Below the pieces are notes generated by a model. The model did no database searches and was not told the DNA's origin. It saw only the letters and a program-made list of their open reading frames with translations. 64,000 bases of DNA from positions 19,470 through 83,469 of the forward strand of contig NZ_CAKUAT010000012.1 of the NCBI RefSeq assembly GCF_934636665.1. Direction: 5' to 3'. This DNA comes from an uncultured Senegalimassilia sp. Its GTDB lineage: Bacteria > Actinomycetota > Coriobacteriia > Coriobacteriales > Eggerthellaceae. Shown here piece by piece: positions 11,286 to 14,695 of this stretch. Every line of letters begins with the position of its first letter. The stretch's first letter is position 1. Made by a program: the position numbers and the translations under genes.

Positions 11286-11483
11286 ATGGAAACGCTAAAC
11301 CTAATCCTTGGGATAATTGCCTCATGCGCGTCGATTGTCGCTGCTGTCATATCCCTTTCTATTAAGTCAGATATCGAGAAAATGCGAGATTCTTTTCAGA
11401 GAAATGCCATGCGTGTCTCTGGTAACGGCAGCAGCCAAGTTATGGGCTCGGGCAACAAGGTGAACGTGCATGCCAATCGCTAG
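11286..11483 (+). CDS. small protein with N-terminal transmembrane helix (65 aa), first gene of a lower-GC cassette
   Basis: METLNLILGIIASCASIVAAVISLSI hydrophobic segment; overlaps next gene by 14 nt. Confidence 0.35.
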   Translation: METLNLILGIIASCASIVAAVISLSIKSDIEKMRDSFQRNAMRVSGNGSSQVMGSGNKVNVHANR

Positions 11484-12036
11484 CTCATGTTCGACAGAAC
11501 TTTCTTCGCTGGGGTTTGGAACTGGCCAGATTGTGGGTGATAACAACACCCAGAAGATTATGATGCAAATTGGCGGCAAAGAAGGGCTTACCCATAGCGT
11601 GGTGCATGATTTGCTCGCCCTCGTCTATAGCGGTTCGCTCAGTGCTGATTCAGAGCTTCCGCTCGATGTCCCCATCGGCATGAATGATAAATTGCGTTTC
11701 AACAACGCAAACAAATATATAAGGATTATCCGCAACCATTCGGACGACTATTCCAAGGTTCGCGAAGCCATGGGCGAGTTCCCCGACAGCGAGAAGATAA
11801 TCAAGAAACTCGGCGATCTCTTCTTTATCGCCGCTGATTATAATGCCGACGGCGAGCTCGTAGTTGGCGATGGGGACAAGCAGCTCGATGCAATCAAAGA
11901 CCGTCTTGTCCAGACAATTCTTGAGGACGTGGATTATAATCCGCATGTTCATACGCGCGAGGATGTAGAAAGTTTCTGCATCGCGCTCGTGGCGTGCGGG
12001 GTTTCCAGATGCATCGTTCTGAAAAAGCCCACGTAG
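11470..12036 (+). CDS. hypothetical protein (188 aa), cassette component
   Basis: Lower-GC ORF, operonic with following genes. Confidence 0.5.
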   Translation: MPIASSCSTELSSLGFGTGQIVGDNNTQKIMMQIGGKEGLTHSVVHDLLALVYSGSLSADSELPLDVPIGMNDKLRFNNANKYIRIIRNHSDDYSKVREAMGEFPDSEKIIKKLGDLFFIAADYNADGELVVGDGDKQLDAIKDRLVQTILEDVDYNPHVHTREDVESFCIALVACGVSRCIVLKKPT

Positions 12037-12054
12037 GAGAGTGTTTAACTATTC

Positions 12055-12300
12055 ATGCTGCTTCTCGACAGGAACAACGACCCGGTGAAGACGGTCTACT
12101 ATATCGCCGCTTTGGCACATTCACGGATTTCCGCCGAAGGAGAAACCGGGATAATCGACCTTTACAGGTGGGTTTGCGACTCCGCTCGATGCGGGGAAGT
12201 TCCTTACGATTTCTTCTTGATGGCTATCGATTTTTTGTTCCTTGTTGCTGGAGTGGATGTTACTGGGGAAGGGAAGCTCCATGTTCATAAAGTCGGTTAG
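12055..12300 (+). CDS. hypothetical small protein (81 aa), cassette component
   Basis: ORF overlapping the start of the ATPase gene by ~20 nt. Confidence 0.4.
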   Translation: MLLLDRNNDPVKTVYYIAALAHSRISAEGETGIIDLYRWVCDSARCGEVPYDFFLMAIDFLFLVAGVDVTGEGKLHVHKVG

Positions 12301-14031
12301 GCTTCGGAACTCGATGACCGGTCGTGTCATGCGTGAGGTTGTGTTCCATAGGGGGCCAATCTCATTGCCGATACTTTTGAGTCAGACAGGCATAATAAGG
12401 TCGGGAAGACGACGTTCCTCAAGCTCGTAGACGTGCTGCTCGGTGCAAATGGAAGGGATCGCCTCTACAAGGACGACGAGACGAATAGCGTCAGCGAGGA
12501 GTTGCGCGACATTATTGTTGACAAACGGGTCGTGGGAGAGATGACTCTCGTGAGCTCGTTCGAGAGGCCCTTTAACCACAGCGTTGAGCTCAAAGTGGAG
12601 CTGTTTCCAAGAGGTCGATATTTCTTTGACGGCGAGAAGGTCAATGCAGCCAAGTACAGGGAACTGTTGGGCGAGGCCTTGTTTGCGGTTGGCTCTAGCA
12701 AGCCCACGTTCCGCCAGCTCATCAAATATTTCGTGAGAGTATCCATGAGTGGGGACGACGATTCCTTCCTTAGAGCGCTGCCCAGAGCATCTATCGCTGA
12801 TTACAGGGCGGTCTACAACTATCTATTTGACATTTCGGATTCGGAACTCGACGCAAGGTTAGCTGAGCTTAACAGGGAGCTGAGCAAGCTTAGGGAATCC
12901 GTCAAGCAGTACAAGCGCCTTTCTGGTATTGAGGACGAGGAACAGCTTGCCCAAGTGGGTGTGGCGCTGGAGCGCGAGTGCCAACGCCTGGAGTCTCGGC
13001 TAGGCGACGTGCTCGATGCCGATGAGTTTAAGGCCAACAGGGAGACAATCGAGGAGGCGAGGAGTCGTTATGCCGAACTGCGCTCTGATTTGGCCGAGGT
13101 CGAATTTAGGATTGAGCGCAACAATAAGTCAATAGAGCGCTTCAGGAAGGGGGCGGCGAAACAAGCAGACCTGTCGCTTTCGCGCAGCTTCTACGACGAG
13201 GTCTGCTCCCTCATTCCCTCGGTGAACAAGACGTTTGAGGACATGGTTGCGTTCAACCGAGCGCTCTGCGAGAACGAGATAGCGTACTTCCGGGAGGTCG
13301 GGGCTGAGCTCGAATCCGAAAGAGCGGGCATCCAGGCTAAGATCGCAGCCTTCTCGGCTGAGAACTTGCGCTACCTCTCGCTCCTTGATGGCAAGGCGAT
13401 GGGCGAGTACGAAGCCCTTCTCGAAGAGTGCATGCGCCTGCGCCAGGAGATGGGCAGAAATGCTGAGGTCCTTAGCACGCTGCAAAACTATGATAATCGT
13501 ATAAAGGCACTGAAAAGTCAAATCGCAAGCCTCTCCGAGGGTGGAGAGGAACGGGAATCCTCGATCTCGAGTCATCAAGCTATGATGAATTCCTTCAATA
13601 GTTATTTTACGCCGATGGCAAATGCTGTTAACGGCGAGAGGCCCATACTGACCTACTCGACTGACACGAGCAAGTTTCCGGTGGCTATAACCGACCTCAA
13701 CGGATCAAGTACCGGCACGCGTAAGTCTCTTTTGGCAGTTTATGACCTTTCGTACCAGCAGTTCGCAATTGCTAACAAGATAGAGGTGCCTCGCTTCGTG
13801 GTTCAAGACGTCGTTGAGAATGTTGAGGGTGAAGACCTGAGGAAAATTATCGACCAAGCAAATAGCATAAATTGCCAGTTTATTATCGCCGTGCTTAAGG
13901 AGAAGCTTGATTCATCGCGGATATCCCAGGAATCACAGGACGCAATGTGCATCCTCGAACTGTCAGAGCGGGACAAACTATTCCAGGGCCTGACGGTCGA
14001 AGCAAACGAGCGGAGCCATGGTTCGGAATGA
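12281..14031 (+). CDS. SMC/Rad50-like ABC ATPase with long coiled-coil (Lamassu LmuB-like or ABC-3C-like); interrupted by a frameshift in a G5 tract at 12351-12355
   Basis: N-terminus MFIKSVRLRN…; adding one G restores …VVFHRGANLIADTFESDRHNKVGKTTFLKLVDVLLG (Walker A); ~350 aa coiled-coil; C-terminal signature/Walker B/H-loop-like SSTGTRKSLLAVYDLSY…RFVVQDVVENVEGEDL…CQFIIAV. Confidence 0.6.
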
Positions 14032-14695
14032 GCGGTGCGCAGTGGCCAACCATAAGAAAGATTCCGGACGTTACAACCCATGGAAGTACAGCACGACAAA
14101 GCATCCCTCGATACTGAGCGAATGCCCGGACTGCAAGTTGCTTGATGATGCCGAATTGTGGGCCCTTTACGAGTTCTACGTTCTCCACTCGCCGTGCGAA
14201 AAAACTAGCTGCCAGGGAAGACCGTTTGAACGGTACGGCTGGAGCGGTTCTATAAGGGATACCGGGCTGGGCTCCGAGCTTGAGGCGGCGTTCACAGAAT
14301 GCAAGGGTCAAATGATCGTGCCTCGAAGCCCCGTTAGTATTCCTTGCGGGGACAAACTTGCGGTCGATTTGCCGCGTATGTTTCAACTTGCTGATTTCAC
14401 TGATGGACTCCTTTTAGATGTCGCTACGGAACGGGTCGCCATGAGGGCTACGTCGGGCAGCAATTCATGGCTCAGGCTATTCCGCCGTATTAGGAACTGC
14501 TTAGCGCATGGGCGCTTCGAAGCAGCCGATCCAGCTGACGGACTTGGTCCGTCTCTGATAATGGAAGATAGGGATGCAAATAATATTACGGCCCGTATGG
14601 TGCTCAGGTTGCAAACTTTGTTGAAATGGCGTGAAATTGTCGAGCGCGGCCCGACCATCGCAGTTTCACCGGCTGAGGTTTCGTGGAGCGAATAG
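14018..14695 (+). CDS. HEPN-domain protein (R-x4-6-H motif RLFRRIRNCLAHGRF), putative RNase effector of the cassette
   Basis: Overlaps the ATPase stop by 14 nt; Cys-rich N-terminal region (CPDC…C…C). Confidence 0.55.
   Translation: MVRNERCAVANHKKDSGRYNPWKYSTTKHPSILSECPDCKLLDDAELWALYEFYVLHSPCEKTSCQGRPFERYGWSGSIRDTGLGSELEAAFTECKGQMIVPRSPVSIPCGDKLAVDLPRMFQLADFTDGLLLDVATERVAMRATSGSNSWLRLFRRIRNCLAHGRFEAADPADGLGPSLIMEDRDANNITARMVLRLQTLLKWREIVERGPTIAVSPAEVSWSE

Follow-up and report, generated by a model that had tools for sequence, protein, structure and literature searches.

How could a Lamassu-type defence operon act when the subunit that should carry its effector domain has none? This question is raised by a cassette at positions 11286-14695 of a 64,000-nucleotide (nt) stretch of an uncultured Senegalimassilia sp. 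(contig NZ_CAKUAT010000012.1; the whole stretch is called the window). Lamassu systems are among the most widespread anti-phage families, and the mechanism of their activation, release of LmuA followed by its oligomerisation, was solved only recently. The cassette comprises five mostly overlapping open reading frames (ORFs) on the plus strand in the ORF list of the window (P1 to P5; Table 1), and its guanine-cytosine (GC) content is 0.49-0.55 compared to 0.57-0.66 in the upstream flank, in agreement with a preliminary description of this DNA that had noted a lower-GC cassette of four to five genes. The same description had all adjacent genes overlapping, which is correct for P1 and P2 (14 nt), for P3 and the ATPase gene P4 (20 nt) and for P4 and P5 (14 nt), but not for P2 and P3, which are separated by an 18-nt gap. 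We read the locus, with moderate confidence, as a four-gene Lamassu variant in which a small membrane peptide, P1, would be the effector, coupled to P2 through a shared sequence motif and leading to membrane killing, with P5 as an add-on.

The assignment to the Lamassu family draws on three of the five proteins. P3 matches the Pfam family ABC-3C Middle Component 6 (MC6, PF20293) with 42.5 bits against a cutoff of 27.2, its homologues in RefSeq are named 'ABC-three component system middle component 6', and its gene is placed between those of P2 and the ATPase, as is the middle-component gene in Lamassu/ABC-3C operons. For P2, neither Pfam nor NCBIfam nor PADLOC gives a direct match. Searching 1.84 billion representative sequences by profile retrieved 116 P2 relatives, nearly all of 175-210 aa (longer matches were set aside, being a TPR false positive and a deletion chimera), and one of the relatives, P0272, reaches the gathering score of Pfam CTD10, the domain by which effector subunits of ABC-3C/Lamassu systems dock at their C-terminus (28.7 versus 28.1 bits). 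Profile-profile comparison with hhalign aligned the close P2 family to CTD10-positive relatives (98.4% probability, E 1e-14) and the whole P2 family to a bona fide SMEK+CTD10 protein (92.9% probability, E 3.7e-7), identifying the C-terminal helical domain of P2 (residues ~67-188) as a remote CTD10 docking domain. Merely ~40-65 residues precede this domain, and no effector domain is fused to P2 in any of the 116 family representatives; judged by these alignments, the protein in the LmuA slot has lost its effector domain. The ATPase, once a frameshift described below is repaired, matches Pfam DUF2326 (49 bits, cutoff 28.7), and in PADLOC its full-length matches are to PDC-M68B (2.7e-29) and LmuB (1.8e-17, residues 1-537). 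With P2 as CTD10, P3 as MC6 and P4 as DUF2326 protein, the order in the window is thus that of canonical LmuA-LmuC-LmuB, and the preliminary impression of a component order unlike canonical Lamassu has to be given up.

A canonical arrangement of SMEK_N+CTD10 followed by MC6 and DUF2326 is found on Clostridium botulinum pCLJ and on a P. megaterium plasmid; as these plasmid relatives carry the same trio, CTD10-MC6-DUF2326 forms a defined set from which the SMEK domain is missing in the window. Together, the profile matches identify the cassette as a short-Lamassu/ABC-3C defence operon of the MC6/CTD10/DUF2326 type. It shares with short Lamassu (LmuA-LmuC-LmuB; DdmABC) the gene order, the MC6 and DUF2326 families and a homologous CTD10, as well as a 'short' ATPase (~583 aa) that lacks a CxxC zinc hook and in which the Walker B Asp precedes a non-canonical residue. 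Whereas the effector subunit of the MC6-CTD10-DUF2326 subtype is a SMEK_N+CTD10 protein, the variant in the window has a ~40-aa tail in place of SMEK_N, and it differs further from short Lamassu by a strictly conserved membrane-peptide gene and a co-varying motif, the window copy also being frameshifted. The suggestion that the cassette is Lamassu/ABC-3C-like and possibly a variant therefore holds, with the effector-less LmuA slot and the membrane peptide setting it apart.

The peptide gene P1 opens the cassette. A Shine-Dalgarno sequence, AAGGAG, can be read directly at 11271-11276, 9 nt 5' of the P1 start, within a region whose nucleotide homology to the relatives L001, L006, L007 and L009 starts at 11111-11122; a strong sigma-70 match was not found in this upstream region. 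P1 contains a hydrophobic helix at residues 3-24 (nt 11292-11357; Kyte-Doolittle mean of 2.45 over 19 residues), and the family alignment shows a conserved architecture of hydrophobic helix, basic/charged helix and G/N/Q-rich tail in homologues of 57-78 aa, with substitutions falling mostly at third codon positions. Because of the Shine-Dalgarno sequence, the third-position substitutions and the conserved transmembrane helix and length, we consider P1 a real coding gene. The basic stretch after the helix predicts, by the positive-inside rule, an N-out/C-in topology. P1 matches no Pfam family and no model in NCBIfam or PADLOC, and the records of Collinsella, Lacticaseibacillus and Clostridium annotate the peptide merely as 'hypothetical protein'.

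Conservation of the locus extends well beyond the genus of origin. Close relatives (70-99% protein identity) have the same genes for proteins of 64/65, 188-192, 81 and 583 aa, and a metagenome scan that used a 12-sequence P2 sub-alignment (A4) as the query yielded 33 loci with P2 proteins 29-98% identical to the reference sequence P0177. Wherever the sequence of a locus was long enough, iterated hidden Markov model (HMM) searches recovered the order P1-P2-P3-P4, together with the overlaps, and all 30 metagenome loci that extend far enough have a P1-like ORF 5' of the P2 homologue. The same four genes are present in Collinsella aerofaciens, on a 7.9-kb plasmid of Lacticaseibacillus paracasei (NZ_CP081854.1) and on toxin plasmids of C. 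botulinum. Plus-strand ORFs 3' of the ATPase gene in divergent loci were considered as fifth genes but discarded, being either spurious or transposase genes read on the wrong strand. P1, P2 and P3 are conserved with the ATPase across loci, and the reservation in the preliminary description that the small flanking ORFs might not be conserved with it can be dropped. By this synteny, the conserved core consists of four genes (P1, P2, MC6 and ATPase) and not three, and the locus represents a widespread but, it appears, undescribed Lamassu variant; a literature search, whose reach did not extend to Krishnan et al. 2020, found no paper linking amyloid signalling with Lamassu or ABC-3C.

The two first proteins of this core share a motif of ~20 aa. 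Aligned profile to profile, P1 residues 40-60 match P2 residues 9-29 with an E-value of 1e-5 and a score far above that of residue-shuffled controls, and the pair of motifs was found in every lineage examined. The motif varies among lineages yet matches inside each locus, as can be seen in the window (P1 tail SGNGSSQVMGSGNKVN, P2 head LGFGTGQIVGDNNTQK), in C. aerofaciens (P1 tail TGKVATNVVGSNNS, P2 head IGKVATNITGDSNS), in L. paracasei (P1 tail NNKLISKGNNNLQQVGGKNSNG, P2 head NNKLSAKGDSNVQQVGTTNING) and in C. botulinum (P1 tail NSGNNKGIMGGI, P2 head NSGDNTGTMAGNI), and as exemplified by the within-pair variants GKVATN/GKVATN, NNKL..QQVG/NNKL..QQVG and NSGNNKGIMGG/NSGDNTGTMAG. For ten clade representatives compared by free local alignment, the within-pair scores sum to 528 versus 354 +/- 34 after permutation (p about 3e-5), and a motif scores highest with its own partner (the diagonal being the row maximum) in seven of the ten; a set of 24 non-independent pairs gives p = 0.0006 for the co-variation. 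Since the two copies of the motif are 43-61% identical as DNA and do not overlap on the DNA, their resemblance is kept by selection on the proteins. An AlphaFold2 (AF2) model places a low-confidence beta-hairpin at P2 residues 16-33. In the P2 relatives P0178 and P0204, the G/N/Q motif is repeated in tandem at the N-terminus, in two or three copies, recalling the pseudo-repeats of fungal HET-s-type motifs. For the P2 homologue of a C. aerofaciens locus (L050, NZ_OY725717.1; 2183-2788), RefSeq/PGAP places the start at locus position 2336; the motif lies in the ORF that begins at 2183 and overlaps the peptide gene, so that the protein annotated in RefSeq is left without it.

The ATPase gene starts with the ATG at 12281 (MFIKSVRLRN) and its frame breaks at a run of G at 12351-12355, where codon 25 is one base short (GGT to GG at 12353-12355) when set against a metagenome relative of 98% identity. 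Restoring one base yields a protein of 583 aa, of which more than 100 intact 583-aa homologues with 82-98% identity occur in gut metagenomes, and on this comparison the operon copy in the window is inactivated by a 1-nt deletion in ATPase codon 25. In an alignment of 14 homologues reaching down to 40% identity, the Walker A (HNKVGKTT), Q-loop (RQ), signature-like (GSSTGTRKS) and Walker B (FVV[H/Q]D) motifs are conserved. In 14 of 14 sequences the residue after the Walker B Asp (D510) is Val, not Glu or Gln, with an invariant E513 three residues on, and the ATPase thereby displays the degenerate Walker B reported for LmuB, in which the catalytic Glu is replaced (bioRxiv 10.1101/2025.03.14.643221; PMC12663957). 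Residues 178-440 match coiled-coil families, the coiled-coil apex (residues 304-332) being strongly conserved, and the alignment contains neither a conserved H-loop His nor a CxxC zinc hook. Of the ATPase features named at the outset, the N-terminal MFIKSVRLRN, Walker A, coiled coil, signature-like motif and Walker B are thus confirmed, but the H-loop is not. The PDB, searched with the ATPase by sequence and by profile, returned nothing meaningful, and no homologue was found in the phage collection. Among the relatives, the ATPase gene of L007 (2831-4728) is frameshifted close to Walker A, though not at the site of the window, and single core-gene disruptions are seen in L030 and L032 (split ATPases), L035 (split MC6), L022 (broken P1) and L044 (MC6-ATPase fusion), the cause being either errors of assembly or the repeated inactivation of a costly system.

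The fifth protein, P5, had been introduced as a 225-aa HEPN protein whose gene overlaps that of the ATPase. Its position, the overlap and the motif RIRNCLAHG (residues 157-165) were all recovered, and its HEPN identity stands at the level of the motif and of sub-threshold profile matches. The R-x4-6-H motif, R159-N-C-L-A-H164-G165, is present in 9/9 homologues (RNxxAHG, R159-H164, nt 14492-14509), across which the TER, RNCLAHG and MED motifs and the residues R159, N160, H164 and G165 are invariant. P5 of the window matches nothing in Pfam and no NCBIfam or PADLOC model; four of the nine family members have sub-threshold matches to HEPN pEK499_p136 and two to Abi_2, the best HEPN match being that of the homologue P0126 to PF18736 (17.1 bits, E 0.0048, below the cutoff of 26.6). 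An hhalign comparison of the P5 family with pEK499_p136 was not significant (E 0.098) and aligned merely the 16-residue motif (to RNSVAH), a tblastn search for pEK499_p136 relatives in plasmids returned only homologues with at least 60% identity, which were of no use for a deeper profile, PDB searches with P5 gave nothing meaningful, and AF2 did not predict the fold confidently, with a mean predicted local distance difference test (pLDDT) score of ~51. The known proteins nearest to P5 are the HEPN RNases pEK499_p136 and Abi_2 (AbiD/F): its RNxxAH aligns to the HEPN catalytic motif, but P5 has an extra N-terminal region of ~100 aa with conserved Cys/His residues, and its scores lie below the cutoffs.

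The distribution of P5 is narrow, with merely 8 clusters of homologues among 5.8 billion proteins. Homologues of 73-97% identity sit behind the ATPase gene with a 4-14 nt overlap in L005 and L010-L012; in L001-4, L006 and L009, P5 is truncated in two different ways with the four core genes intact, and it is absent from all 33 divergent four-gene loci. Homologues of 44-45% identity (L013-L015) are sited elsewhere, away from ABC-3C genes, where they adjoin a gene for a Shedu-type SduA_C protein or stand alone among glycosyltransferase genes. In L013 (6135-7573), the 44%-identical homologue directly follows the SduA_C protein with no ABC-3C genes present, and this unconnected occurrence suggests that P5 is a mobile stand-alone module. 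The HEPN protein proposed as a component of the cassette is thus not part of its core; P5 is a probable HEPN-type accessory gene or an independent abortive infection (Abi) gene recruited into the operon of one sublineage.

Table 1 Features of the cassette, in window coordinates.
Feature	Position (nt)	Strand	Evidence
Upstream conserved region, putative promoter/5' untranslated region	11111..11285	+	nucleotide homology to relatives
P1, 65-aa single-pass membrane peptide, proposed effector	11286..11483	+	ORF, hydropathy, conservation
P1 tail motif, G/N/Q-rich (residues 40-60)	11403-11465	+	hhalign
P2, 188-aa effector-less LmuA-slot protein with remote CTD10	11470..12036	+	transitive HMM and hhalign
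P2 head motif (residues 9-29)	11494-11556	+	hhalign
P3, 81-aa ABC-3C Middle Component 6 (LmuC equivalent)	12055..12300	+	Pfam PF20293
P4, LmuB-like ABC ATPase pseudogene, 583 aa once repaired	12281..14031	+	frame analysis, DUF2326, PADLOC
P4 Walker A	12391-12414	+	motif
P4 signature-like GSSTGTRKS	13702-13728	+	motif
P4 Walker B FVVQD	13795-13809	+	motif
P5, 225-aa lineage-specific accessory protein, probable HEPN-type RNase	14018..14695	+	motif, sub-threshold profile matches

The feature of interest in this locus, a membrane peptide with a co-evolving motif, had gone unseen in the preliminary description. Beyond the family assignment and the co-variation, what we say on how the system might work is inferred from two parallels, the solved Lamassu complexes and amyloid-signalling pairs, of which Bab/Agp is an example. 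In Lamassu, the C-terminal domain (CTD) of LmuA is held by two LmuB coiled coils and LmuC; its release follows the sensing of DNA ends, and the subsequent oligomerisation activates the effector (bioRxiv 10.1101/2025.03.14.643221; PMC12663957). In the Abi pair Bab/Agp, a terminal amyloid motif is common to a sensor and a small protein that has a hydrophobic helix at its N-terminus (bioRxiv 10.1101/2024.11.07.622273), and in Bab/Agp as well as in Bell-BASS/NLR pairs a motif of ~20 residues at the C-terminus of the small protein and the N-terminus of the adjacent sensor leads through amyloid templating to membrane killing (bioRxiv 10.1101/2024.11.07.622273; 10.1101/2020.01.06.895854). As the P1/P2 pair has the sequence-level hallmarks by which amyloid-type pairs are recognised (set out for BASS motif pairs in bioRxiv 10.1101/2020.01.06.895854) and the release of LmuA provides a precedent, we propose that P2 clusters or templates P1. 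In the resting state, P2 would be held through its CTD10 domain by the ATPase dimer and MC6. It would be set free in response to DNA ends of foreign origin or DNA of aberrant structure and would then oligomerise via CTD10, and its clustered N-terminal motifs could pair with the identical motif of P1 in the membrane or act on it as a template. Clustering of the P1 helices would permeabilise the membrane and the infected cell would die, an outcome equivalent to abortive infection. P5 would be a later, dispensable add-on, probably a HEPN RNase, co-transcribed in the sublineage of the window. A more specific idea is possible, in which the peptide is a minimal pore former and the SMC-like DNA sensor of Lamassu reaches it through prion/amyloid-like templating by the motif common to the P1 tail and the P2 N-terminus, but we hold it only tentatively and on balance lean against it.

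The likeness to E. coli Bab/Agp, bacterial Bell-BASS/NLR and fungal HET-S/NWD2 comprises the build of the small protein (hydrophobic helix N-terminally, G/N/Q-rich motif of ~20 aa C-terminally), an adjacent overlapping gene with the motif at the N-terminus of its product, a resemblance within pairs that exceeds that between pairs, and the defence-island context. In contrast to those pairs, the partner here is a Lamassu docking subunit and not an NLR/STAND or TGP sensor, and the oligomerisation of P2 is extrapolated from LmuA CTD structures. Among Lamassu systems, a close counterpart is 'Clade O' of short Lamassu (PMC12663957), with a CTD-only LmuA whose effector domain has seemingly been lost, non-truncated LmuC and LmuB and an occurrence in many species; an upstream membrane peptide and a shared motif are not mentioned there.

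Several points weigh against P1 as an effector driven by P2. When seven metagenome clades are compared in a register fixed by the multiple sequence alignment, the co-variation is weaker (p about 0.08), and it could also come from a common third partner bound by both motifs. The Q-phi-phi-G pattern of the motif differs from the G-phi-Q-phi-G register of RHIM/BASS3, Pfam detects no homology of P1 to Bell/HeLo domains, and P1, with one hydrophobic N-terminal helix and 65 aa compared to ~100 aa for Bell/Bab, is too short for a full Bell domain. AF2 yields no confident structure for P2 (mean pLDDT ~51), and the ATPase has no HMMER-detectable similarity to the solved LmuB structures, so that the analogy to the solved complexes rests on family-level HMMs. 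The system in the window cannot work as encoded because of the ATPase frameshift. Moreover, Krishnan et al. 2020, who reportedly defined MC6 and CTD10, may already describe this architecture. It is nevertheless unlikely, in our view, that the locus is an effector-less Lamassu which, for example, binds or blocks foreign DNA and in which the P1 and P2 motifs dock on the same third partner, be it the ATPase, MC6 or a host factor. Such a system would agree with the strong conservation of the ATPase apex, with the report of a clade that has no LmuA effector domain but intact LmuB and LmuC (PMC12663957) and with a co-variation within loci that is also expected if both motifs adapt to one binding site; yet a purely DNA-directed mechanism can hardly account for a membrane peptide that is so strictly conserved and has a cytoplasmic tail, known homotypic signalling pairs place their motif exactly as it is placed here, C-terminally on a small membrane protein and N-terminally on the product of the following gene, and all Lamassu tested so far need effector activity (PMC10586767). 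That P5, as an RNase which the ATPase complex sets free or activates, is the real effector of its sublineage, with P1 as no more than a membrane anchor or regulator, strikes us as very unlikely. HEPN effectors are common in Abi systems, the short overlap of P5 with the ATPase stop in the window, L005 and L010-L012 suggests translational coupling, and the invariant RNxxAHG and the sub-threshold HEPN matches would suit an RNase, but P5 is missing from every divergent four-gene locus, has been truncated independently beside an intact core in close relatives, has its 44-45% identical homologues away from ABC-3C genes and possesses neither a CTD-like docking domain nor a copy of the shared motif.

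Two further explanations concern the ATPase gene itself and bear on whether P1 and P2 belong to a Lamassu operon that has been inactivated in the window. Weak coiled-coil matches to SMC-related and DndD models might be taken to indicate that the ATPase is a fragment of a housekeeping SMC/RecN/SbcC protein and that the small ORFs are spurious, a possibility already raised in the preliminary description. We regard it as refuted by the full-length matches to the defence-specific LmuB and PDC-M68B models, the DUF2326 match, the length of 583 aa kept among homologues, the strict synteny with MC6, CTD10 and the peptide across phyla and the carriage on small plasmids. The frameshift, on the other hand, might be a sequencing or assembly error at a homopolymer, leaving the operon functional in the source organism. 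The break does fall in a G run, and several metagenome relatives have similar single disruptions that are possibly assembly errors; we nonetheless think an error improbable, as the surrounding island is truly decayed (an IS3 element directly upstream, a GajB remnant that is split by a stop and has no GajA, and insertion sequence (IS) fragments) and L007 is disrupted in this N-terminal region too, but differently, which would suit a costly system that is inactivated again and again.

The placement of the cassette inside a defence island is supported by its neighbours, which match a GajB remnant, AbiJ, HEC-07, Septu PtuA/PtuB, PDC-S56 and a DdmD-like helicase and identify the neighbourhood as a decayed defence island. 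Directly 5' of the cassette lies an IS3-family element with a frameshifted orfAB (9540-11050, plus strand). Directly 3' (14724-16739, plus strand) is a remnant of the Gabija helicase GajB that matches the GajB profile from position 57 on (6e-99) and is divided by a stop codon into two ORFs at 16232/16233; its first ~120 codons come from antisense IS sequence and no GajA accompanies it, which probably reflects an IS-mediated deletion. A C-terminal fragment of an IS3 transposase (14861-15166, minus strand) lies inside this gene, and a 72-nt IS-end-like repeat at 16794-16865 is also found flanking the cassette in the relative L005. Further downstream, two proteins are encoded in the lowest-GC patch of the island (0.43-0.47; 17559-19973, plus strand), an AbiJ-like/Abi_C protein of 284 aa and after it one of 477 aa that lacks Pfam domains and matches HEC-07 only weakly (6e-10), and an apparently intact Septu system consists of PtuA (1.5e-124) and PtuB (1.9e-52; 21012-23026, minus strand). 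The island also holds PDC-S56 (1193-3253, minus strand; 1.9e-126), an M78-peptidase protein with weak RmrA/CapP matches (7177-8577, minus strand), a 1254-aa DdmD-like helicase (30798-34562, plus strand; 1.2e-35) and, in a second low-GC patch (0.42-0.46), a 356-aa ORF without a Pfam or PADLOC match (25087-26157, plus strand).

For the effector-less clade of Lamassu, the four-gene architecture supplies a concrete and testable answer, namely that the effector would be a tiny upstream membrane peptide that is easily overlooked. Both the peptide and the motif are easy to miss, the former labelled a 'hypothetical protein' and the latter cut off by a mis-called start of the partner in one RefSeq record. 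Direct testing is practical, given a compact module of about 2.7 kb that is also carried by small plasmids such as the 7.9-kb one of L. paracasei. If the coupling is amyloid-like, it would link DNA sensing of the SMC type with the activation of pore formers by a templated motif. Templating, if true, would explain the 'effector-less' Lamassu clade, would extend amyloid-type signalling past NLR and TGP sensors to SMC-family immune complexes and would place such signalling in unicellular gut Actinobacteria and Firmicutes.

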